Below are positions 421-42,592 of a stretch of DNA of 50,544 nucleotides, piece after piece; within the stretch, counting starts at the first letter, position 1; the number at the start of each line of letters is the position of its first letter. The notes beneath the pieces are model-generated. The model did no database searches, was not told where the DNA came from, and saw only the letters and a list, made by a program, of their open reading frames with translations. Source of the stretch: a virus; the IMG/VR virus record IMGVR_UViG_3300007352_000005, positions 1-50,544 of that record. One strand, given 5' to 3'. Position numbers and translations under genes: made by a program.

Positions 421-1254
421 TTAGTGGAGAAGTTCAGAAAAATACTTAATGTAGAAGTTTTTATTCTTTGGTATATATCCCTTATGCTGCGTTCTTATGT
501 GATACAATACGTGCCTCACCATTTCGTAAGGCCCATGATACTTTTCCCCCACATTCATATATTCCTCTACTGGAATCGTCCCCTTAGCGATGGTACTAAT
601 TATCTCCGCTGCGTGAGGTTGTTCCAGCGCCATACCCAGAATGTGACTATCGTGAAATCCTAAATCTGTCAAAGTCTGTAGAAATTGTGGATAATCTTTT
701 CTTACTTTGTGATTAAACGCAAACACCCGTAGGAGATTGGCGATAAAAGATATCACCATAGGATAATCAAAATAGGAGGGAGTGATTTCCATATACCCTA
801 CGAAGCGGTCGTTGGGAATGGATATTTTCGGTAAATCAAACAATGCATTGGGAGAAATCACCCTAATTTTATTTACATTTAGATAGTTTTTTATACTAAC
901 TAAGTTAGCCTTGAGGATAGAGGTTTGATACCCCAAGAATGACCTGTCTTGAACCAGCAACACAAGTCTTTCGTTCTTGTTCTGAGGACGTGTGCTGTTG
1001 TCGTACAGACTCACAAGCTCTTTAATAAGCACATCCCTGCACCAACAGAAAGGAAATAACTGCCGCACAGTAATTTCTATAGGAGTGTATCCGTTCTCTT
1101 CAATAGGCAGCTCTATTGAAGTAGTCATCCCTACACTGAAAGACAAAGAACTAACTGTACCGGACTGTGCCACTTCATTCCAATACTCCCACTTTTTGTT
1201 AGGAACAAAGCTAATCTTCTTTACATAATTGAGCTTAATCATTAGCCTCTCCAT
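421..1254 (-). CDS. hypothetical protein (277 aa), member of the amidoligase operon
   Basis: Long ORF packed tightly between the class I amidotransferase gene (20-nt overlap) and the ligase gene. I recognise no motif. Confidence 0.6.
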   Translation of the reverse strand: MERLMIKLNYVKKISFVPNKKWEYWNEVAQSGTVSSLSFSVGMTTSIELPIEENGYTPIEITVRQLFPFCWCRDVLIKELVSLYDNSTRPQNKNERLVLLVQDRSFLGYQTSILKANLVSIKNYLNVNKIRVISPNALFDLPKISIPNDRFVGYMEITPSYFDYPMVISFIANLLRVFAFNHKVRKDYPQFLQTLTDLGFHDSHILGMALEQPHAAEIISTIAKGTIPVEEYMNVGEKYHGPYEMVRHVLYHIRTQHKGYIPKNKNFYIKYFSELLH

Positions 1255-1951
1255 TCACTATGTATTTATTGAGAGCGTCCTTGAAGAACGCAAGTCCGGG
1301 GCTGCCTACTGCTAAACCTTCTGGATGAAATTGTACCCCCAATGCCCTAATTTCTGGAAACCACAGAGCTTCCGGTTCCTTATACACATCCGCACCACTC
1401 TTAAACTTAAAGTGTTTCTCAAATTCATCCTTCACTTTAGAGGATGCTGTGTATTTAGAACTGAGGCCGGGGGCATATGCCAACAACTCATACGTCCCCT
1501 CTTTAGGAACACACATCTGGTGATGAATACTATTCACCATCACTTCTCTGCCATCTTCTACAATGACAGCACGATGGATTCCACTACTATGTCCGGTAAC
1601 GTGCTGAATGAGCTTACCTCCAGTGAGAGCTGTAAACAACTGCATACCTCTACAGATGCCGACCATAGGAACTTTGTTTACTAGAGCCCACCTATACCAC
1701 TCTAGTTCCCATGAATCTCGCATAACACCATGCCCATAACTAGCAATGTCTAGTTCCCCGTACAAAGAAGGAGTGAGGTCTTCTCCGCCAGTAAAGAGAA
1801 TAGCGTCTGGTTTGCTGCTCGTGATAGTTGAGAGATGCTTTGGACGCATGTTGCTACTAACCATGCGTACTTGGTACTCAGGGATTATTGCCTGAGCGTA
1901 TCCGTGGTAGCCCAAGACAAGGGCCTGTTTCTTATTTACTGTGTCGGCCAT
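1235..1951 (-). CDS. class I glutamine amidotransferase / peptidase C26 (gamma-glutamyl hydrolase-like)
   Basis: Nucleophile elbow VPMVGICRGMQL, C-terminal LGVQFHPE (His-Glu of the triad), and FTGGEDLTPSLYGE. Confidence 0.8.
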   Translation of the reverse strand: MADTVNKKQALVLGYHGYAQAIIPEYQVRMVSSNMRPKHLSTITSSKPDAILFTGGEDLTPSLYGELDIASYGHGVMRDSWELEWYRWALVNKVPMVGICRGMQLFTALTGGKLIQHVTGHSSGIHRAVIVEDGREVMVNSIHHQMCVPKEGTYELLAYAPGLSSKYTASSKVKDEFEKHFKFKSGADVYKEPEALWFPEIRALGVQFHPEGLAVGSPGLAFFKDALNKYIVNGEAND

Positions 1952-3292: not shown

Positions 3293-3366
3293 TGGTACTA
3301 CCGTCTGGAATCGAACCAACATCTCTCGCTTATAAGGCAAGTGCTCTACCATTGAGCTACGGTAGT
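3293..3366 (-). tRNA. tRNA-Ile, anticodon TAT (reads AUA), CCA encoded
   Basis: Hand-folded cloverleaf. Acceptor ACTACCG/CGGTAGT, D arm GCTC-AATGGTA-GAGC, anticodon arm CTTGC-CTTATAA-GCGAG, T arm with TTCGATT loop, discriminator A plus CCA. One mismatch at the base of the T stem. Confidence 0.8.
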
Positions 3367-3381
3367 TAATAAATTCCTACG

Positions 3382-3612
3382 TCATTTATTCAGTTTCTTA
3401 CTGTCTGCTACATAGCCCTTAACATGGGCAAATTTCTTGCTCTTTTCTTTTGGCACACTGTGCTCCACTATCTTCTCAGTAGTGGTGCCTAGATGTTTCC
3501 CGTAAAAACCATAAATAAAAAAACCAAATACACTAAGACTAATGGCTATAGCTAAATAGCCAGCAATCTTAGAGCATTTAGATGGATGGAATATTTCTTG
3601 GTCAGGATGCAT
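3382..3612 (-). CDS. small membrane protein (76 aa, one TM)
   Basis: Hydrophobic span IAGYLAIAISLSVFGFFIYGFYG followed by a lysine-rich tail. Confidence 0.5.
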   Translation of the reverse strand: MHPDQEIFHPSKCSKIAGYLAIAISLSVFGFFIYGFYGKHLGTTTEKIVEHSVPKEKSKKFAHVKGYVADSKKLNK

Positions 3613-3719
3613 TCATTCTCCTATGTCCCATAATGTGTGCCATAGCCAACTAACAGGACGCTTTTCCACTAAACATTCTCTTGTAGCATCGAGAATGTGT
3701 TGTATGTATTCGTTAGTCA

Positions 3720-3869
3720 TTATCTTGTAGCATCGTGAGCTGTACTAAACTTAATAACACCTACCGATACAAGTACAATCCAGTATCCCCATGTAGTTAT
3801 GGGCATACCATTAAAAGCTAGAGTGCCTCCAAGAATTCCCCACGCTAGTAGGTTGATTGCAAAGGTCAT
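3720..3869 (-). CDS. small membrane protein (49 aa, two TM)
   Basis: Internal ATG at 3869 gives MTFAINLLAWGILGGTLAFNGMPITTWGYWIVLVSVGVIKF. The stop overlaps the next micro-ORF start. Confidence 0.4.
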   Translation of the reverse strand: MTFAINLLAWGILGGTLAFNGMPITTWGYWIVLVSVGVIKFSTAHDATR

Positions 3870-3989
3870 GTTAGTGTTTCCACGGATACGCAGGATGGGA
3901 GGAAGGAATAAAACAGAATGGCCTAGACACCATTGTAGCATGGTATGTCTCGGCGTTAATCAGGCCAATAATCCATTGTTTAGTGTATT

Positions 3990-4217
3990 TCATTTAGGAA
4001 CTCCGCATTGTGTCCAGCAATTGTTAAGTTTTCTAAACCATCGTTGTTTAGAATATCCGTATTGTATTCCGTGTTTAATGTGTAAGGACAGTGTGGTGCA
4101 GATGATTTGCCCTGTCTTTAACAGTACAGGTACGTTTGAGATTTTGGCGCGTTTACTGCGGAAGTAGGAATATTGTACTTTAGAGTATAGTCTGTTTATT
4201 GGCGCGTACGTAGTCAT
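3990..4217 (-). CDS. small basic hypothetical protein (75 aa; alternative start 4229)
   Basis: The track ORF start at 4271 lies inside a terminator hairpin. The ATG at 4217 is preceded by GGAGAAGGGA. Confidence 0.45.
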   Translation of the reverse strand: MTTYAPINRLYSKVQYSYFRSKRAKISNVPVLLKTGQIICTTLSLHIKHGIQYGYSKQRWFRKLNNCWTQCGVPK

Positions 4218-4242
4218 TCCCTTCTCCATTATTTTTAGGTAT

Positions 4243-4269
4243 AAAAAAAGGGGCCCCTTTCGAGGCCCC
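4243..4269 (-). terminator. intrinsic terminator, minus strand
   Basis: GGGGCC (4250-4255) pairs with GGCCCC (4264-4269) around an 8-nt loop. The A7 run at 4243-4249 is a U7 tract on the minus-strand transcript. Confidence 0.7.
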
Positions 4270-5002
4270 ACAACGTGCCCCCATTGGCGGGGGCGGGAGG
4301 AAGATTTGCTTTGGCAGGGATTCGCCCCACCTTTCGCGTAAGCTCACGCTGTTTTATGGATAACATTGTGAGATTAGACACAGTAACTTCTCACTCCATG
4401 CGCCGTGGTAATATCTTGTAGCATCTCACGGCGACTAGCTACAAGAGAATACAAAGCATTATCCCATAGCACCGATTTTTGTACACCCGGCAACGATGCT
4501 ATAGGCTATCGCCTTGCAGCGACAACTTCCATTGATTTGTTCCAATGGCAGAAGCAGGGACGTTCTTTGTACTTAAATCCCCTAAATCTAATTTATATCA
4601 TCTATCTCTAAATAATATAAAATAGATTACATGACTAGAGATTGTTACTATTCATCCAGCACCTATTAAACTGGTAGCGTATTCAATCCCCCGCACTCAT
4701 GCGATATTCCGGCCATGTATCCGGTGTAACAGGACATATATAAGATTCTAACCCTATATAAGTTTATCGCGCTTTATCTAGGCATTATTTACGGAACTAC
4801 ATAAATACCATCCGTTCGCCGCCTATTATTCACGCGCCCTGTATGAGATTCTTTATCCGCATTTACGCCGGGTAATCTCCACCCGCCATCATCCCGTTTT
4901 ATAGGTAAGGGATTCTATAATTCCTAGTAATAGAATATTAGTTAGTTTAATCTAACCGTAAACTATTATTAGTCATTATCGCCACGGCCAGCACCCAACG
5001 TA

Positions 5003-5014
5003 TACTTTAAAGTA
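5003..5014. repeat. 12-bp palindrome TACTTTAAAGTA, copy 1 (extended to the 16-bp palindrome TATACTTTAAAGTATA, 5001-5016)
   Basis: Read directly. It is followed by a second palindrome, GCGTATACGC, at 5018-5027. Confidence 0.9.
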
Positions 5015-5287
5015 TAGGCGTATACGCTTCTGTTCTTGCCTAATAAACCCTGTGAGTCTTGCGCCATATACTTAAACGCGCCATGTCTAATGGCTCAGGC
5101 TTACTTAACATTCCGGTCAATCCCCGGATTGATTCTAGCCCCTTGGCTAGAATAGAGCTACAAGCTAGAATATTGCGACACGAACTAAAATATAGTTCGT
5201 CCTAGCAGGTAGAAAAATATAAAATCGTAGGCCACTAAAAGCACAATCATAATCTTAGCGTACATGGGTTTATGTCCTCTCAGTATG

Positions 5288-5299
5288 TACTTTAAAGTA
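5288..5299. repeat. 12-bp palindrome TACTTTAAAGTA, copy 2
   Basis: Read directly. Confidence 0.9.
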
Positions 5300-5357
5300 T
5301 GTTTTTAGAAGCCTGTTGTAAAATAGCAACAATAAGGACAGGCCTATCCGCTTTGTA

Positions 5358-5375
5358 TATAATCGAAAGTGAGAA
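5358..5375 (-). promoter_or_regulatory. conserved 18-nt motif TATAATCGAAAGTGAGAA, copy A (candidate promoter reading leftward)
   Basis: Identical to copy C and 17/18 to copy B. Lies 70 nt downstream (minus sense) of the terminator at 5446-5474. Confidence 0.45.
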
Positions 5376-5445
5376 TAAAATTTCTGTGCTAAAATCCCCT
5401 AAACATTGTAAGACTAATAAAAATTAGGATACAAAAAAAGACAAT

Positions 5446-5474
5446 AAAAAAGGGCGCACCGGAATGGTGCGCCC
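5446..5474 (-). terminator. intrinsic terminator, minus strand
   Basis: GGGCGCACC (5452-5460) pairs with GGTGCGCCC (5466-5474) around the loop GGAAT. The A6 run at 5446-5451 is a U tract on the minus strand. Sits 19 nt after the stop of 5493..6119. Confidence 0.85.
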
Positions 5475-5492
5475 CTGCATACGGCTCACTTG

Positions 5493-6119
5493 TTAGCCCA
5501 CTCGGGCGATTCGTACGTCGTCAATTTCGCTATCATCCGCTTCAGTTTGTTCCGGGTGGATGACCCGGTATTCCTTTACCATTTCCGCGATTGTCTTTGA
5601 TACTTCACTGATAAAGGCTTCATCTTGCGTACCGATGACAATTTCCGCCACTGCACGGAATTGCTTTAGGTGCTCCGGTACGCTATCAGCTGCCTCTTTT
5701 TCGGCGGTCTTGGCGGCCTTTTTGCGCGCCTCATTCAATGCCTTGCTTGCCACTGAGTAAGACACTGGCGCACCGTTGGTATCCGTCAAAGGCACATTCC
5801 TGTCGAACATGGCTTTAACATCGGATTTGGCTTGCGTCCAGATTTTGGGCAAGCGTTTGATGCCTTTCGCCTTGTTCGCCACCTTGTAGCGCGCCTCGGC
5901 CTTATCCATCGCCAAGGTAAACACTTCCCTATTACCGCACTCTACCGCTATGGCAATCAAAGCATTGCTAATACCATTACGGTATTTTATCGTTTGTTTA
6001 TCGGCGTGCGCTGCATCTTTCAGGATGGGCGCAAGTTTGTCCGCTTCACGTACGATAAGTGCGTTTTGTTCCACTATCTGTGCCGCTGTTAACGGCGTTT
6101 CACTGTTGGCAGTTTCCAT
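5493..6119 (-). CDS. early hypothetical protein (208 aa, helical, acidic C-terminus)
   Basis: GAGGAA Shine-Dalgarno before the ATG at 6119. Forms its own unit of promoter-like motif and terminator. Confidence 0.7.
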   Translation of the reverse strand: METANSETPLTAAQIVEQNALIVREADKLAPILKDAAHADKQTIKYRNGISNALIAIAVECGNREVFTLAMDKAEARYKVANKAKGIKRLPKIWTQAKSDVKAMFDRNVPLTDTNGAPVSYSVASKALNEARKKAAKTAEKEAADSVPEHLKQFRAVAEIVIGTQDEAFISEVSKTIAEMVKEYRVIHPEQTEADDSEIDDVRIARVG

Positions 6120-6151
6120 CGGTATTTCCTCAGGTTATGCCGTATGCAAGA

Positions 6152-6169
6152 TATAATCGAAAGTGATAA
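6152..6169 (-). promoter_or_regulatory. conserved 18-nt motif TATAATCGAAAGTGATAA, copy B
   Basis: Lies 33-50 nt upstream of the ATG at 6119 and directly abuts the U tract of the preceding terminator. Confidence 0.45.
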
Positions 6170-6197
6170 AAAGAAAGGCCCGCATATAGCGGGCCTT
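6167..6197 (-). terminator. intrinsic terminator, minus strand
   Basis: AAGGCCCGC (6175-6183) pairs with GCGGGCCTT (6189-6197) around the loop ATATA. On the minus strand it is followed by TCTTTTTAT. Confidence 0.8.
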
Positions 6198-6200
6198 ATG

Positions 6201-6212
6201 TACTTTAAAGTA
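6201..6212. repeat. 12-bp palindrome TACTTTAAAGTA, copy 3
   Basis: Read directly. Lies between the stop of 6217..6690 and its terminator. Confidence 0.9.
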
Positions 6213-6216
6213 TATT

Positions 6217-6690
6217 CTAATCTTCACTATCTTCTGGTTCTGTATAGGTATCTTCCAGTTCATCCAAAAACGCAGCGCGCCACGACCGCCACGATTTAAG
6301 CGCATCCAAGGCCGCCCGGCGTCCTATCTTGAAACATAACGCTTCATCCCTTGCGCCTGTTGTCCACAAGCGTATGAGCGCGCACTGGTACGCCTCCATG
6401 TATAAATCGTAATCCCGCACCCATGCTCGTATTGTGTTGTTATAGATATGCTGCCGCCCCACTACATACTGCGCCGATAGTTTGGCTATCCGTGCCGCAT
6501 CTGCCTCAGACATTCCGAAACCCTTGGGTATAACGGCCTTGGCTTCACGGCCTTGGCTTGCCGACCGTGGGCTACCGTCATCATTCACTAGCAGCCATCC
6601 GCGAGCTTTCGCCCGGTATGCCGTGGCCTGGCTTACGTTGTACTGCTCCATTATTTGCTTCACTTCAATATACTGGATATTGACCCGCAT
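6217..6690 (-). CDS. early DNA-binding protein with N-terminal helix-turn-helix (157 aa)
   Basis: The ATG at 6690 lies 7 nt after a GGAGG Shine-Dalgarno; the track start at 6696 is a GTG. MEQYNVSQATAYRAKARGW looks like an HTH. The segment YDLYMEAYQCALIRLW...GRRAALDALKSWR loosely resembles ECF sigma region 2 (weak). Confidence 0.6.
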   Translation of the reverse strand: MRVNIQYIEVKQIMEQYNVSQATAYRAKARGWLLVNDDGSPRSASQGREAKAVIPKGFGMSEADAARIAKLSAQYVVGRQHIYNNTIRAWVRDYDLYMEAYQCALIRLWTTGARDEALCFKIGRRAALDALKSWRSWRAAFLDELEDTYTEPEDSED

Positions 6691-6721
6691 ATGCACGCCT
6701 CCATTGTTTAGGTGCGTTCAT

Positions 6722-6739
6722 TATAATCGAAAGTGAGAA
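6722..6739 (-). promoter_or_regulatory. conserved 18-nt motif TATAATCGAAAGTGAGAA, copy C
   Basis: Lies 32-49 nt upstream of the ATG at 6690. Confidence 0.45.
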
Positions 6740-7059
6740 GCACTTTACAAGTATCTCTAAAGAGATATATATTAGCTTGCGCTAACATAAGCACAAGAAA
6801 GTATGTGCATTGAGGCAGTAGGGGCATACAATCGCGCCCACTGTTCGCCGCACTGATACAGTGCAAATGAGGGAACGATGCACCATTTCGGGGCACCGAG
6901 GGAAACCTTGCAGAGCGCAGGGACGGGACGGAGCCACTTTACGACGGTGCTACAATTTTATAATGCGCTGATTTTAAAAGAATAAATGCCTTCCTCTGAC
7001 TAGGCAGGAGGTATTAGTTTTTTATATAAAAATATATTTATTTTTAATTCAAAAACAGC

Positions 7060-7088
7060 TTGACAAAGGACACAAAATATGATATAAT
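7060..7088 (+). promoter_or_regulatory. consensus sigma70-type promoter, rightward
   Basis: TTGACA (7060-7065), an exact 17-nt spacer, then TATAAT (7083-7088). An AT-rich UP-like tract lies at 7016-7057. Confidence 0.75.
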
Positions 7089-7676
7089 ACGCACTTTCCG
7101 TGGCAAGCTGGTGAGGTAACTACTTGAATTAAATACTTAATGGTATTGCCAAGGAATTAAAATAATAATAATTAATTATTCTTTAATTCATTTGGGGAAC
7201 TTTTTCCTCTTTTACCTGTCTAAGGATAACTAGGAAATAAAAAGGAAACACATATTTTTTATTAGGCGGGGATAGACTAAAGGAATAGAGGATTGGGGAA
7301 CAACCCTCATTGTGTTCAGCACACAATCCTTAGATGATGTCTTTACGTTGGGGATATTACATTTATTCTGTAAAACGAGACGACCGCTACCCATTGACGA
7401 CAGCTTCAGTCAAATGCTAGAATGGGACAATATTGGGGCAGTAAAGCAGGGGGATGATAGAGAAGGTATTCCCTGCACCAACTCGGAGGAGTGGTTTCCT
7501 CTTTAAACATCAAACAGCCCCATATCTAAATTAATAGAGAATAACAAAAGCATTTAACACCTAACGGAGCGCTGTACGAGCTGGGAATCTGAGGAGCAAA
7601 AGCTCTGAGGGTATCTAGATAGACTAAGGGCAACAGCTCTTGGGATATCATCCCATAAGCTCGTCTTTGATTACCT

Positions 7677-8000
7677 ATGTTTAAATTTAGCTGTTTAGTT
7701 TTAGCTGTTTGGCTAATGGCACTCCCTGTAGTTCTAGCTCAGGAAGAGATGACTCCGGTAGATAGTTGCTACCATAAGGCTAATTTCTACTACCACGTAG
7801 CTCTCACGAGAGATAGTGGTATTCCTAGGGTAGACCTAGAGATGTATTTCAAGAGGCTTGCTGCTCAAACAGACATTCCTCTTTCCCTGTTAGATAAATA
7901 CATAGAAGCCATTGTCTATGTTTATTCCGTTAATAGCACCCCTAAGAATATAGCTTCTGGTGTGTTTCAAGAATGCCTTTCCCCCACTAAGAGAATATAA
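7677..8000 (+). CDS. secreted protein with signal peptide (107 aa)
   Basis: MFKFSCLVLAVWLMALPVVLAQEE is a typical Sec signal with an AxA-like cleavage site. No clear Shine-Dalgarno. Confidence 0.5.
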   Translation: MFKFSCLVLAVWLMALPVVLAQEEMTPVDSCYHKANFYYHVALTRDSGIPRVDLEMYFKRLAAQTDIPLSLLDKYIEAIVYVYSVNSTPKNIASGVFQECLSPTKRI

Positions 8001-37548: not shown

Positions 37549-37973
37549 GCTGTTGCCTCCTGAGGCTTATTATAGTTTAATATGGCGTACGCTAACTCCA
37601 ACATATCTTCATCTGTACCTACACTTTTTCCTGCATTATACATATGCAGTACCACTCTACAATTATCTTCTGTATATCCTTTCGAGTTATCAATGCGGTC
37701 AATCGAAGGGGAATGGACAGAATGTGCTACATACTTAAAGGCTATTCCAGTAACCTCACAAACACCTCTTGTCAGCTTGGATAGCACCCACTCCCTAGTT
37801 AAATTGAAAGAATACCCGTACTTAGTGGCCCTACTTTTAGCGGATGTCCAAAGAACATACGCTCGACCGTCTGGGGTATTTCTATATTTCCTGTGAATTG
37901 CGTTCATTTTAGGCCTGTGCCTCTCCGCGTACTCCTTAGCATACTTCTTTCTATAGGCTTTCCTATCAAACAT
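37545..37973 (-). CDS. HNH-family homing endonuclease-like protein
   Basis: SPSIDRIDNSKGYTEDNCRVVLHMYN. Lies immediately downstream of the DNA polymerase. Confidence 0.6.
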   Translation of the reverse strand: MFDRKAYRKKYAKEYAERHRPKMNAIHRKYRNTPDGRAYVLWTSAKSRATKYGYSFNLTREWVLSKLTRGVCEVTGIAFKYVAHSVHSPSIDRIDNSKGYTEDNCRVVLHMYNAGKSVGTDEDMLELAYAILNYNKPQEATA

Positions 37974-39744
37974 TGTAATCCCAATGACTTAGGGACTTCT
38001 GCTCTACTTCTAACGGGTAATTAATGTCATACCCAATAACCTTTTTGAAAAATCCCACTACATCCTTAGACAGCGCCTTCTCCAATAAGTTCCCTACTTC
38101 TTCAGATTCATTTGGTTCCTCCTCGACAATAACGCTATCATGCACCTCATTGATAATGAAAGACTTTAGGTTCCGGGCCTTCAGTTCGTGCCATAAGAGA
38201 CACACACCTGTAGGGGATATATCAGCTGTAGCAAACATCTGCACAGGGTAGTTACGAATACTCTCGTTATTAGTTATATACCCGGAGGATGTATAGTCGG
38301 CATTAGGCCAATAAAAAATCAATCCTGTGACGGTACGTAGCTGCTTAGTCTTAATAACCTCCTCAATCCACCGCATGTGCATGGCATCAATTGCCCTATA
38401 CCTATCCTTAAACCATTTATAGTAGGTTTGTTCGGCCTTTGTCCCCGACGTACCCCCGTATAGGGGCTTAAAGGTGTGGGACTTAGCGTCCTGTCTATTG
38501 GTTTCCTGCCCTGCCTCGGTGAGGACAGCACTGGTACGGGCATGAACATCCACGTTGTGTACATAAATATCGTCATACGCTACCTTGTCCTGAGCCAACA
38601 TAGCTGCCACTCTAAACTCTAGTTGCTTATAGTCTCCACTACGTATCTTCCATCCCTTCGTACGGGCCGTAATCACCTTCTTAAGATTGCGGTCTATGTT
38701 CTGTAGATTAGGATTGGAGGACGTTAAGCGATGGCTCTGTGCTATAGACTGATTAAGGGAGCCGTAGATAATGTTATTGTTATTCTCACAGGCATCTACA
38801 AATTTTTTTGTGTAGGCGCTAATCTTTTTTCTAAGCTTACTCTCCTCTGACTTGAGGGCGAGGAAAGCACGTTGTTGTCTATTAGTGCATTTAAGAGCCA
38901 AGATTGTATCTTCATCCGTCTTAGGATTTCCTTCTGGAAACGCCTTAGAGGGTTTGCCCCTAATCGGATTGCCTCTCCTATCTCTGAGTTCTTCAAATCC
39001 CATCTCCCCATATAAAAACTTAGCTACCTGTTGTGGACTACCCATGTTAATACCGCCAGTAATCTCGTCAAGTTCTACCTCAAGAGTGCGGTGTCTGGTT
39101 TGGGCTTCCTTATGTAGGCTTATAACAAGCTCCTTGTCTAGGAATATTCCCTTCATCTCTATGTCAGCTAACACAGGCGTAGAAATATTTCGTATAAAAA
39201 ACACAGGAAGAAGTCCCTTCTCTTTTAATATCTTCCTCTGCTTAAGGAACACACCATGCGTTATCTCCACGTCCTGTATACAATAGTCATGCAACAGGCT
39301 ATAAGGGATTTCACTAGGGCACACTCCTGCCTTAATCATCCTAGATACTACAGACTCTTTCCCTGAATACCCATAGCGTTTAGCTATGCTATCTAGGTCA
39401 AGGGCCCATTGCCTATTACCAGCTAGTACAAATTCCCCGAGCAGAGTGTCATAAAACAGTAGCTTAGATACATCCACACCTAAACGAATAAGCCACTTGA
39501 TTTCAAACTTAGCGCCTTGAGCTACAATAAAATCTACCTTATGTATTTCCTCTAGCACTTCATCTAGTGTACGTATTTCGCCATGACTGCGATTACTATA
39601 ACAATACAAATCAACAATACAATTGTCTCCATGCCTAGCGTCACCTTTATTATTATTCTTTGTCTCTAGGTCGAAAACTAAATAGTTCTCTGATAAATAA
39701 ATGTCAGGATTTGGGTGCGTTATGAAGCTTGGCAACTGTGCCAT
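37966..39744 (-). CDS. DNA polymerase, family A, with 3-prime-5-prime exonuclease domain
   Basis: Exonuclease motifs LVFDLETKN and HDYCIQDVE. Polymerase motif A GDYKQLEFRVAAMLA, motif B RQDAKSHTFKPLYGG, motif C INEVHDSVIVE. AGGAGGGG Shine-Dalgarno before the ATG at 39744. Confidence 0.92.
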   Translation of the reverse strand: MAQLPSFITHPNPDIYLSENYLVFDLETKNNNKGDARHGDNCIVDLYCYSNRSHGEIRTLDEVLEEIHKVDFIVAQGAKFEIKWLIRLGVDVSKLLFYDTLLGEFVLAGNRQWALDLDSIAKRYGYSGKESVVSRMIKAGVCPSEIPYSLLHDYCIQDVEITHGVFLKQRKILKEKGLLPVFFIRNISTPVLADIEMKGIFLDKELVISLHKEAQTRHRTLEVELDEITGGINMGSPQQVAKFLYGEMGFEELRDRRGNPIRGKPSKAFPEGNPKTDEDTILALKCTNRQQRAFLALKSEESKLRKKISAYTKKFVDACENNNNIIYGSLNQSIAQSHRLTSSNPNLQNIDRNLKKVITARTKGWKIRSGDYKQLEFRVAAMLAQDKVAYDDIYVHNVDVHARTSAVLTEAGQETNRQDAKSHTFKPLYGGTSGTKAEQTYYKWFKDRYRAIDAMHMRWIEEVIKTKQLRTVTGLIFYWPNADYTSSGYITNNESIRNYPVQMFATADISPTGVCLLWHELKARNLKSFIINEVHDSVIVEEEPNESEEVGNLLEKALSKDVVGFFKKVIGYDINYPLEVEQKSLSHWDYNV

Positions 39745-39934
39745 TCGCCCCTCCTACGATATCTGTTCCACAAACTGCACAATATCTAACCTCTCGTTGT
39801 CCGTGAGGATAATGTGTCACGGTCATATGTATCTCACATCTACATGAGGCACACGTAGTTTTCCATCCAATGTAATTAAGACGAGGGTTCCATCCAATGT
39901 AATTAAGACGAGGGTCATTGAAATGATTTCTCAT
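39704..39934 (-). CDS. zinc-ribbon protein (76 aa) carrying a 9-aa tandem duplication
   Basis: ATGA coupling to the helicase stop. CASCRC...CAVCG. PRLNYIGW occurs twice. Confidence 0.55.
   Translation of the reverse strand: MRNHFNDPRLNYIGWNPRLNYIGWKTTCASCRCEIHMTVTHYPHGQREVRYCAVCGTDIVGGANGTVAKLHNAPKS
39862..39915. repeat. perfect 27-bp tandem duplication (2 copies)
   Basis: TCCATCCAATGTAATTAAGACGAGGGT occurs at 39862-39888 and again at 39889-39915. Confidence 0.95.
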
Positions 39935-41109
39935 ACAGTTATCCTGTTGGTCGCGTAATCTATGTTAGCAGAGAATGCTTTGATTGGAGCAGTGAACTTA
40001 CTCTTAGGAAAGGACAGCATCACCCTTCCTGTGCTTACCATTTCTGGGCTTTGCCCAAGTCCTATCATCAAGTCCATCTGCGCGGCAACCCCTGTGTTGC
40101 TCCACTCCACATCCTCCATATCCAGCACAAGCTTGCTTCTAGCACTATCCCCTGCCTGTGTCACCACAACAGACACACAATCAAATTCCTTGGCTAGATT
40201 ACGAGTGCCAATACAGCCTTGCTCAAGATTGATGGTCATGCTTTCTTTCTTGATGTGCATGTTTCTAATCTGGTCTATGACAAATACATCTGGCTTGATG
40301 CGTTCTATCCATTTCCTAAGTTCCGGCAACGTACCCGGATGCGTAGGAATAAAGAATAGATTGCTGTAGCCATTAGACAGAGCTATATCAAAATACTTCT
40401 TAGGGTCTTTCTTAAGCTCATGTTCCGGTATACGTGTAAACCGACTGACAATACGATACATCATCTTAGGAGCAGGGTCTTCGTTCCCTAGGTAGAGAAC
40501 CTTGTATCCCGCCTCAGCTGCTCCCACAGCCATATTGATAGCCACTGTGGATTTACCTACGTTGGGCCTAGCAAATACACACAGCTGTGATTGCCGGGGC
40601 ACACCTCCACCTAAAATATTATTAAGATGTGTGGGATAGACAGGTATCATATTCTTCCCAGTGAAATGTTCCTCCAGCTTATCAATAGGCGTGGCATTAA
40701 ATAGCTCGTCCTTAACCTCCTCAACACCGAAGGTAAGGTATTCCTCCATATAGGCTTTGGCTTTCTCTTCGTCCTTACCGGCAATACTTTTCATTATCTC
40801 TTGCGAGATTTTTTCCTTTTGTACTGACGTAAAAAGTTCAAGGAGATTTGGAAGTGAAGGTGGTGCTGGAAGAGACGCAAAATATTCTTCAACGAGATTT
40901 TCTTTTTTCGCATTTTTCTTTTTTATAATTGTTTTTATTATATCTACGTCCACATGGGAGGCGGACGAGTCCTTCTTATAAAAGTTTACTACCTCATCAA
41001 ACACCAGAGAATTGAAATCATAAAACGTATTCTCCTTTACGAAGGGATAGATTTTATGGAACGCATCTCTGGATTGAATGAGTGCTGCTATTAGTTTATT
41101 TTCTTGCAT
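39931..41109 (-). CDS. replicative DNA helicase (DnaB-like, RecA-fold C-terminal domain)
   Basis: Walker A ARPNVGKSTVAINMAVGAA and Walker B-like VFVIDQIRNM. Confidence 0.85.
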   Translation of the reverse strand: MQENKLIAALIQSRDAFHKIYPFVKENTFYDFNSLVFDEVVNFYKKDSSASHVDVDIIKTIIKKKNAKKENLVEEYFASLPAPPSLPNLLELFTSVQKEKISQEIMKSIAGKDEEKAKAYMEEYLTFGVEEVKDELFNATPIDKLEEHFTGKNMIPVYPTHLNNILGGGVPRQSQLCVFARPNVGKSTVAINMAVGAAEAGYKVLYLGNEDPAPKMMYRIVSRFTRIPEHELKKDPKKYFDIALSNGYSNLFFIPTHPGTLPELRKWIERIKPDVFVIDQIRNMHIKKESMTINLEQGCIGTRNLAKEFDCVSVVVTQAGDSARSKLVLDMEDVEWSNTGVAAQMDLMIGLGQSPEMVSTGRVMLSFPKSKFTAPIKAFSANIDYATNRITV

Positions 41110-42515: not shown

Positions 42516-42592
42516 TGGTGCCCACGGAGGGATTCAAACCCCCAATACACAGATTAGAAATCTGTTGCTTTATTCAATTAAGCTACATGGGC
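42516..42592 (-). tRNA. tRNA-Arg, anticodon TCT (reads AGA), CCA encoded
   Basis: Hand-folded. Acceptor GCCCATG/CGTGGGC, D arm GCTT...AAGC, anticodon arm ACAGA-TTTCTAA-TCTGT, 5-nt variable loop, T arm GGGGG-TTTGAAT-CCCTC, discriminator A plus CCA. Confidence 0.8.

Follow-up and report, generated by a model that had tools for sequence, protein, structure and literature searches.

The window analysed here is the whole 50,544-nucleotide (nt) stretch of IMG/VR virus record IMGVR_UViG_3300007352_000005, a phage genome in which a region of about 1.1 kb between two minus-strand genes, named here gene B and gene C, lacks long open reading frames (ORFs). We propose that this region, running from about position 5375 to position 4243 on the minus strand, is a self-contained early unit, and that its main product is a stable, autonomous and trans-acting large structured noncoding RNA (ncRNA) of an undescribed family; we put the probability of this reading at roughly 60%. 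The narrower claim that the product of the gap is a conserved structured RNA is, in our judgement, very probable. The initial annotation of this DNA had suggested a discrete large structured ncRNA transcribed from the minus strand between a repeated motif and a terminator, and this suggestion is supported by a conservation above that of neighbouring genes, by covariation, by an asymmetry in G·U pairs and by the lack of a coding signal.

Relatives of the phage were reached via homologues of gene B and of the large terminase (TerL), and comprise the contigs designated L003/L004, L005, L011-13, L014, L015, L017, L018, L022 and L024-26. No close relative was present among the GenBank phages or in IMG/VR, and gene B has only two relatives in 5.8 billion proteins. 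Contigs L006-L010 proved to be unrelated by BLAST, and contigs L016 and L043 stop short of the locus. Wherever the contig of a relative covers the locus, gene B, or the gene corresponding to it, is followed by ~0.7-2.5 kb in which no genes were called. A profile search with nhmmer identified a core of ~520-550 nt in L003/L004, L005, L011-13, L015 and L017; in the window, this conserved structured core spans positions 4590 to 5125 on the minus strand (~535 nt) and contains at least 16 helices. L022 was added through a covariance model of the 3' domain of the core (model R1): it carries a reduced version, which scores 67 bits (E 3e-14) and lies outside the training set of the model. In total, seven distinct phage lineages, namely that of the window and six relatives, carry the RNA. 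The core is 80-82% identical to that of L003 and 75% identical to that of L005, as compared with 66% at the DNA level and 55% at the protein level for gene B. Similar values (80% to L003 and 75% to L005) are obtained for window positions 5065 to 4499, and the 3' end of the unit together with gene C is 88% identical to L005.

We then analysed whether the core changes in the way expected of a folded RNA. The alignment was made with MAFFT from six sequences, whose pairwise identities over the core range from 82% down to 47%, and was not fitted to any structure. The RNAalifold consensus of the core has 91 pairs in 16 helices. Standard pairs are formed in 93.6% of the cells, as compared with 35-43% when the partners are slid by 1-3 columns, and the covariation score is 0.50, as compared with 0.06-0.09 in the slid controls. 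None of 500 column shuffles reached any of the observed pairing values. Compensatory base changes, for which the initial annotation had proposed to test homologous regions, are found in 44 of the 91 pairs, which have changed on both sides, as compared with 6-13 pairs in the slid controls. The alignment also contains 101 G·U cells, and the same pairs read on the opposite strand are only 75.5% standard. The minimum free energy of the core is -153 kcal/mol on the minus strand (z -3.3) and -116 kcal/mol on the plus strand (z -2.2). The G·U asymmetry and these folding energies, together with the direction of the terminator described below, therefore identify the minus strand as the RNA strand.

The core does not code for protein. 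Mismatches are spread evenly over the three codon positions (p 0.45-0.95), while the same analysis of gene B, used as a control, gave p ~1e-8; insertions and deletions are mostly not multiples of 3; and stop-free stretches do not exceed 70 codons in any frame of the six sequences. These data also bear on the idea that the region is a decayed or recoded protein-coding gene, to which its gene-like length and its position between two real genes on the same strand might point. In that case some codon periodicity would be expected, but there is none and most indels break the frame; every homologue has stops in all frames; and the region is more conserved than the intact genes next to it, which is the opposite of decay. 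We therefore give this idea practically no weight.

The lack of ORFs is unusual for this genome, which assembled completely as a circle, has a terminal repeat of 99 nt and a unique length of ~50.4 kb, and encodes terminase, portal and capsid proteins. Positions 4272 to 5492 (1221 nt) form its longest stretch without an ORF of at least 75 amino acids (aa), and only three such stretches of at least 400 nt exist in the genome (4272-5492, 6737-7676 and 45080-45526). The initial annotation had described the region as ORF-free, with stop codons in all six frames of 4270-5492 and a 68-aa plus-strand ORF as the only one listed. This is correct in that the longest ORF on either strand has 68 aa, but a minus-strand ORF of 26 aa with a Shine-Dalgarno sequence had been overlooked. 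The unit is therefore not wholly noncoding, and ~900 nt of it are coding-free.

A covarying hairpin, UGCUG-GCCG-UGGCG (helix 5; minus strand, 4980 to 4993), contains in its loop region the sequence GGCC (UGGCCGUG at 4990-4983), which is kept in all seven sequences. In the stem of helix 5, a G-C pair is replaced by A-U in three of the six sequences, and a C-G pair by G-C or A-U. Further along the minus strand are a hairpin at 4887-4867 (GGCGGGUGG-AGA-UUACCCGGC) and a long helix of positions 4843-4835 with 4736-4728, in which eight of the nine pairs show compensatory change. The most conserved part of the core is its 3' domain (4628 to 4766, minus strand), for which we made alignment A5 and covariance model R1. 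In this domain, 94.5% of the cells are paired and 20 of the 40 pairs have compensatory changes, and R1 gives scores of 134-155 bits for its six training sequences. The domain is closed by a long-range helix of positions 4719-4712 with 4635-4628 that covaries at two positions; in L022 the sequence of this helix is entirely changed and its two sides are still complementary. It encloses an invariant single-stranded segment (CCGGAAUAU), the hairpin CGCA-UGAG-UGCG and a three-way branch, and a separate hairpin, GGGUUAGAAUC, lies upstream of it. Two other structures were considered for this domain and rejected. A T-loop reading of GGGUUAGAAUC was dropped, as the covarying register gives a 4-nt loop instead. 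A CCGG/CCGG helix of four pairs is essentially invariant, with one unpaired cell and no compensatory change, and it competes with the closing helix, which covaries and is preferred.

Downstream of the core is a variable linker (4310 to 4589, minus strand). Most of it is deleted in L005, L013 has a shorter version, and the linkers of L015, L017 and L022 are different, such that the distance between core and terminator ranges from ~50 to 280 nt among the relatives. The variability of the linker implies that the 68-aa plus-strand ORF at 4405-4611 is not conserved. At the start of the linker, at ~4640-4590 on the minus strand, an AT-rich hairpin shows compensatory changes. The initial annotation had offered the AT-rich stretch at 4585-4640, together with a DnaA-box-like sequence, as a possible mark of a replication origin. 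The region might then be an origin or encode the primer transcript of one, as at the primary origin of T7 or with RNA II of ColE1, and several features could be taken in this sense: an early promoter-like motif followed by a long untranslated transcript, the AT-rich stretch itself, two DnaA-like 9-mers with one mismatch each (at 4355 and 4853), and a sign change of the GC skew near 6-8 kb. The DnaA-box-like sequence TTATCCGCA is indeed present, but at 4853-4861, one base away from where it had been placed, and it lies inside a conserved segment of the RNA. DnaA-like 9-mers are scattered unclustered over the genome (24 found versus 14 expected), there is no iteron family, and 4243-5375 contains no tandem repeats. 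Moreover, the AT-rich stretch is the RNA hairpin with compensatory changes just described, the G·U asymmetry shows selection on the RNA strand, the skew change coincides with a switch of the coding strand, and the replication genes (37966-41109) are ~17 kb away round the circle, or ~33 kb along the window. We therefore abandoned the origin reading as very improbable.

Close to its 3' end the unit contains a conserved 3' module (4270 to 4309, minus strand), consisting of a pyrimidine tract, UCUUCCUCC, followed by the hairpin GCCCCC-GCCAAU-GGGGGC. The module is near-identical in L003, L005 and L013, with a compensatory change of C-G to U-A in L013, and L022 and L015 have a similar CU-rich tract plus hairpin. 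The unit then ends at an intrinsic terminator, GGGGCCUC-GAAA-GGGGCCCC with a U7 tail (4243 to 4269, minus strand). The terminator of the initial annotation is thus confirmed: its hairpin, at 4269-4250, has eight pairs, seven of which are G-C, a GAAA loop and a T7 tail in the DNA. L003, L005 and L013 keep a terminator at this position, with covariation in its stem; L015, L017 and L022 have equivalents.

At its other end the unit is preceded by a repeated promoter-like motif, another feature that the initial annotation had described correctly. The 15-mer TATAATCGAAAGTGA occurs exactly three times in the genome, at 5358, 6152 and 6722, and its copies belong to a family of 22-nt repeats. The third copy (5358 to 5378; TTATTCTCACTTTCGATTATA in the minus-strand reading) is the presumed start of the transcription unit of the RNA. 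The three copies define three successive early units on the minus strand. In the first, the motif at 6736 is followed by gene A (6690-6217) and a terminator (6197-6175); in the second, the motif at 6166 is followed by gene B (6119-5493) and a terminator (5476-5450); and in the third, the motif at 5372 is followed by ~1.1 kb and the terminator at 4269-4250. For genes A and B, 32-33 nt separate the end of the motif from the start codon. Written as TC-TCACTTTCGAYTATA, the motif is found upstream of each of the first early units of the window (5358-5378, 6151-6172 and 6721-6742), and copies are present in L003 (1031 and 1821), L005 (10762), L013 (7175 and 6382), L015 (6065) and L022 (3833); in these five relatives the same motif precedes gene B and the RNA unit. 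From this arrangement we infer that the motif acts as a promoter; it may be an unusual promoter of the host type, one specific to the phage, or a site that combines promoter and operator. Gene A contains a helix-turn-helix-like sequence by eye and has no Pfam or PHROG match.

Directly after the third motif lies a conserved 5' leader (5301 to 5352, minus strand) with two small hairpins, GGAUA-GGCC-UGUCC and UUGUUG...CAACAG, which, as read by eye, are kept with complementary changes in the window, L003, L005 and L013. The leader is followed by an operator-like palindrome, GTACTTTAAAGTAT (5287 to 5300), ~90 nt after the third motif and immediately before the Shine-Dalgarno sequence that belongs to the small ORF; the palindrome precedes the Shine-Dalgarno sequence of the small ORF in L003 and L005 as well. 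Copies of GTACTTTAAAGTAT are located at 4175 (one mismatch), 5002, 5287, 6200 and 44456, of which the last is inside a listed ORF and probably unrelated. The palindromes that the initial annotation had listed at 5001-5016 and 5018-5027 are both present. Seen more broadly, operator-like palindromes of the GTACTTTAAAGTAC type stand immediately before the Shine-Dalgarno sequences of small early ORFs in the window (5287-5300, 6200-6213, 5002-5015 and 4175-4188) and also in L003 and L005, and a different palindrome, TATTCTAGAATA, takes their place in L017 (about 5365, 4705 and 3770) and L018 (about 5620). This switch suggests a co-evolving pair of regulator and operator.

The small ORF (5185 to 5265, minus strand) encodes a hydrophobic peptide of 26 aa, MYAKIMIVLLVAYDFIFFYLLGRTIF, from an ATG preceded at 8 nt by the Shine-Dalgarno sequence GAGAGGA. 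Its L013 homologue, MIYSKIIIVLLVAYDFILFYSLGRMVF, is 73% identical and the two genes have many synonymous differences. The initial annotation had named the emergence of short conserved ORFs as a result that would speak against an RNA; such an ORF was found at the 5' edge of the unit only, and not in the core. L003 and L005 have at the position of the small ORF a hydrophobic ORF of ~46 aa that is unrelated to the 26-aa ORF, and in L017 and L022 the RNA is present without any small ORF. Between the small ORF and the core is a spacer (5126 to 5184, minus strand) that is specific to the window and aligns with no relative, and it is here that most of the perfect hairpins highlighted in the initial annotation are located. 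The hairpins at 5132-5153 (9 bp, CCTT loop), 5181-5199 (7 bp) and 5117-5132 (6 bp) do exist; the hairpins that had been cited for 5117-5207 fall within this spacer and the 3' end of the 26-aa ORF.

The presence of the small ORF raises the question of whether the RNA is the long structured 3' untranslated region (UTR) of an mRNA for a small toxic membrane peptide, like a hok-like type I toxin, where it would control the translation or stability of the 26-aa message. In favour of this are the hydrophobic ORF with a Shine-Dalgarno sequence directly upstream of the RNA, which L013 shares, the other small hydrophobic ORF that occupies this place in L003 and L005, and a pyrimidine tract near the 3' end that resembles an anti-Shine-Dalgarno sequence. 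When this CU-rich tract was analysed with RNAduplex for pairing to the Shine-Dalgarno region of the small ORF or to another fixed site, no consistent target was found. In addition, L017 and L022 have the RNA without the ORF, and the two kinds of small ORF are mutually unrelated while the RNA remains constant. To our knowledge, the fold of no known type I toxin mRNA approaches the size of the core. We consider a role as toxin 3' UTR quite unlikely.

Beyond the terminator, gene C (3990 to 4217, minus strand) encodes a basic protein of 75 aa. Its Shine-Dalgarno sequence, GGAGAAGGG, comes directly after the terminator, and the gene begins 32 nt past the terminator without a promoter motif of its own. 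Gene C was overlooked by gene callers, but is conserved in L003, L005, L013, L017 and L018, the last of which lacks the RNA. It has only two homologous clusters among 1.84 billion representatives; a word-indexed search of a 5.8-billion-protein index returned none, a Pfam match was not found, and the single-sequence AlphaFold2 model is poor (predicted local distance difference test score, pLDDT, of 55). Gene C was considered as the protein partner of the RNA, and the lack of a Pfam match, the poor model and its occurrence in the RNA-less L018 weaken this candidate. As gene C has no promoter motif of its own and lies behind the terminator, some read-through must occur.

The need for read-through brings in a further explanation, in which the structured RNA is a cis-acting leader that modifies RNA polymerase or controls the terminator at 4269-4250, and so sets the read-through into gene C and the leftward operon, in a manner comparable to the put RNA of phage HK022 or to a very large attenuator or riboswitch. 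The put RNAs of HK022, like processive antitermination RNAs in general, are ~70-120 nt long, have two stem-loops and act in cis only. The RNA studied here resembles them in its position just after an early promoter and before a terminator that must be read through to express later genes: the Shine-Dalgarno sequence and start codon of gene C are within 32 nt of the terminator, no copy of the motif is located downstream, such that the downstream genes need read-through, and promoter, structured RNA, terminator and genes follow one another as they do in such elements. Conservation of the 3' module (CU tract, hairpin and terminator) would also fit. On the other hand, the core of ~535 nt is much larger than these RNAs, and the unconserved linker, with its core-terminator distance of ~50 to 280 nt, agrees poorly with coupling of an aptamer to an expression platform. 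Also, the downstream gene is a different one in L015 and L022, and relatives with the same operon layout lack the cassette. L018, for instance, keeps gene C in place without the RNA, and a terminator scan detected no terminator directly upstream of its gene C. On balance, we regard the cis-leader explanation as rather unlikely, though it is the main rival.

With covariance model R1, the RNA was not found in L014, L018 and L024-26, and the gap regions of these contigs share nothing with the gaps of the RNA-bearing relatives. Model R1 also gave no match in 81 IMG/VR loci, 80 of which belong to TerL relatives at 42-68% identity, nor in L027-L042. The DNA of the region had no match in GenBank phages, in near and distant search modes, or in plasmids, and exact patterns from the conserved blocks returned either nothing or chance matches in IMG/VR, JGI metagenomes and GTDB genomes. 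In the RNA-less L018, the slot between genes B and C holds a small membrane-peptide ORF and two tRNAs (29-aa ORF and tRNAs within 4998-5163), which suggests that this is a slot for stable RNAs. As the initial annotation had pointed out, a tRNA-Ile gene is located downstream of the unit in the window, on the same strand and 0.9 kb away (3293-3366); tRNA genes are likewise present downstream in L003, L005, L013, L015 and L017, and L022 is the sole exception among the RNA-bearing loci searched.

Several observations on the relatives are worth mentioning in their own right. The RNA of L017 is extended at its 5' end by ~340 nt of G+C-rich sequence (5780-5440, minus strand) that looks strongly structured, and in which neither an ORF nor an Rfam match was found. 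Past the RNA slot, the content of the early operon varies; in L003, positions 5121-6311 encode an RtcB RNA ligase. The RNA-less L014 (NCBI GCA_034680565.1, JAXOUH010018719.1) encodes at 874-2887 a Ro60/TROVE protein with a vWA domain, beside which a YrlA-like (Y RNA) match is located at 2756-2887 (37 bits, E 1e-5, below the gathering score), and this contig has a gene-free gap of 2.5 kb at 3345-5876. The TerL proteins of L024-L026 (for example, L024 10001-12499) are 832 aa long and have an intein-like insert with weak or faint matches to Hom_end and LAGLIDADG_3.

As for the remainder of the window genome, the structural genes occupy the plus strand from 7677 to ~29.9 kb, and all remaining genes are on the minus strand. 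Among the proteins of the minus-strand block that were scanned are a DNA polymerase of family A, a DnaB-like helicase, a ribonucleotide reductase and amidotransferases. Reverse transcriptases, recombinases and transposase-like proteins were not found among the neighbouring and largest proteins scanned. The second long ORF-less stretch, 6737-7676 (plus strand), lies between the divergent operons. On the plus strand, positions 7060-7088 form a perfect sigma-70 promoter (TTGACA-17-TATAAT, with TG upstream), which leaves a leader of ~590 nt up to the first plus-strand gene at 7677. The stretch is 74-78% conserved in L004, L005 and L013, with several helices showing compensatory changes by RNAalifold, and is probably the structured 5' leader of the late, or structural, operon. 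The third gene-poor stretch, 45080-45526, contains a plus-strand tRNA-Arg(TCT) gene (45116-45199) amid minus-strand genes; a second tRNA-Arg(TCT) gene is on the minus strand at 42516-42592. Finally, window positions 421-1951 and 46710-50416 hold a cluster of genes that encode a class-I glutamine amidotransferase (Peptidase_C26) and a GATase_6/7 protein, to which relatives add COOH-NH2 ligase and Amidoligase_2 genes (L003 7218-11709), and which looks like the peptide- or metabolite-modification cassettes of phages.

Taken as an autonomous RNA gene, the unit would work as follows. Transcription would start at the motif TCTCACTTTCGATTATA, whose three successive copies would serve gene A, gene B and the RNA unit. 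In the window phage, the transcript would encode first the 26-aa membrane peptide and then the RNA, which would accumulate as a stable molecule working in trans, rather than as a DNA site or a leader. The reasons for favouring a stable, trans-acting early RNA are the ORF-free units of L017 and L022, which consist of motif, RNA and terminator only, the swapped or absent small ORF in other lineages, the variable spacer and the tRNAs in the slot of L018. As judged from the sequence comparisons, an independent RNA gene, comparable to a moron-like cassette, is better supported than a leader or a 3' UTR. The RNA may act as an RNA-only assembly, or as a scaffold or decoy that binds host or phage proteins during host takeover. 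The scaffold or decoy mode is suggested by the fact that the clade invests in RNA functions, with tRNAs throughout, RtcB in L003, and Ro60 plus the Y-RNA-like match in L014. More speculatively, the invariant GGCC loop and the invariant junction palindromes (CCGG and CUAG) might mediate self-association, by analogy with the self-association of OLE, GOLLD and ROOL.

A number of points weigh against a stable trans-acting RNA. Read on the minus strand, the motif does not correspond to a canonical sigma-70 promoter, no -35 element being recognisable there, and in a simple scan it scores as a better, perfect TATAAT on the plus strand. The ends of the transcript, its stability and its abundance are all inferred, the promoter-like motif and the intrinsic terminator having been assigned as its ends by consensus and comparison. 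The read-through required for gene C leaves room for a role in cis. No partner protein has been identified, and gene C also exists without the RNA. Being invariant, the GGCC loop gives no covariation support. Lastly, the RNA is known from seven lineages only, of which three are mutually close; the covariation is therefore strong for the helices but cannot resolve tertiary or intermolecular contacts.

A more far-reaching possibility, which we put forward tentatively as less likely than not, is that the RNA represents a new class of ornate large RNAs that, in the manner of GOLLD, ROOL and OLE, functions with no dedicated protein. It might form a self-assembling RNA-only particle with its invariant GGCC, CCGG and CUAG palindromes as symmetric contacts, or be a ribozyme, and would be made in the first minutes of infection for takeover of the host or protection against it. 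If true, ornate phage RNAs would have had an independent evolutionary origin, here in a defined early cassette running from promoter to terminator. This cassette is compact (promoter motif, optional small ORF, RNA and terminator), and its slot within the earliest operon of this lytic phage is fixed. Some close relatives have the RNA, and in others tRNAs or other content stand in its place. The pattern of presence and absence and the early timing would make the question of what large phage RNAs are for approachable by cassette swaps, and the 3' domain of ~140 nt and the 535-nt core are tractable for structural work. The narrow known distribution, of seven lineages with none found in IMG/VR, GTDB genomes or GenBank phages, limits the general reach for now.

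To place the RNA among known families, we screened the window and seven related loci with the Rfam 15 covariance models at gathering scores, and window positions 3900-7700 and L017 positions 4550-5900 with permissive filters and E values up to 10. At gathering scores, the whole window yielded three tRNAs only and the seven related loci yielded tRNAs only; the permissive scans returned nothing relevant in either region. Kinship with GOLLD (RF01998) or ROOL (RF03087), which the initial annotation had evoked, thus has no match behind it at any threshold used. The lack of Rfam matches means that GOLLD, ROOL, introns, RNase P RNA, tmRNA and Y RNA are not supported. A group I intron (RF00028) or a group II intron (RF00029, RF02001 and related families) was rejected on this ground and because the flanking ORFs are complete, with their own Shine-Dalgarno sequences and stops; a reverse transcriptase or homing endonuclease beside the RNA was not found among the neighbouring and largest proteins scanned. 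Similarly, a Y RNA (YrlA, RF02553) working with Ro60 was rejected, as the window has no match and the weak YrlA-like match occurs only in the RNA-less L014.

It could still be argued that the RNA is a diverged and unrecognised member of one of these classes (GOLLD, ROOL, a group I or II intron, RNase P RNA, tmRNA or Y RNA), and the phage setting, the nearby tRNA genes, the size and the many helices are indeed as in GOLLD and ROOL (PMC12286853). Against this are the negative Rfam scans, including those at E values up to 10, the absence of a split gene flanking the RNA, and the absence of an intron-encoded protein or reverse transcriptase among the proteins scanned. We give this explanation very little credence. 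By the available models, the RNA is best classified as a new family among the large ornate phage-borne ncRNAs near tRNA genes, with no detectable relationship to their described members.

Bacterial and phage RNAs of more than ~500 nt with complex conserved folds are few, and include GOLLD, ROOL, OLE, HEARO and raiA. ROOL has a core of ~500-600 nt with many helices, occurs in phages and prophages, often near tRNA genes, and has no known protein partner (PMC12286853). The RNA described here is like ROOL in being phage-borne, in its 535-nt core with at least 16 helices and in having a tRNA gene 0.9 kb downstream on the same strand. It is unlike ROOL in that it matches no Rfam model even at E values up to 10 and has been found here in seven related environmental phages only. 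With GOLLD it shares the phage setting and the proximity to tRNA genes, and in both RNAs the 3' domain (here 4766-4628) is the most conserved part. Palindromic GGCC loops make symmetric kissing contacts in OLE and GOLLD (PMC12286853), and the invariant GGCC in the loop of a covarying hairpin here recalls, by analogy only, the palindromic kissing loop of GOLLD. The differences from GOLLD are the lack of an Rfam match, the smaller core (GOLLD exceeds 800 nt) and the genomic position: the expression of GOLLD is reported to rise during lysis, whereas the gene for this RNA belongs to the very early region and follows a promoter-like motif that is repeated there. OLE, an ornate RNA of ~600 nt that dimerises by means of a palindromic GGCC loop, is similar in size, fold and loop. 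However, OLE is chromosomal, is found in Gram-positive extremophiles and anaerobes and works with OapA, OapB and OapC, while the RNA of the window has no Rfam match and no Oap genes were seen. Among smaller RNAs, species 1 and 2 of phage T4 are stable non-coding RNAs of ~140 nt that lie among the phage tRNA genes in an early or middle transcription unit. They are alike in their tRNA-region setting, and the RNA described here is several times larger.

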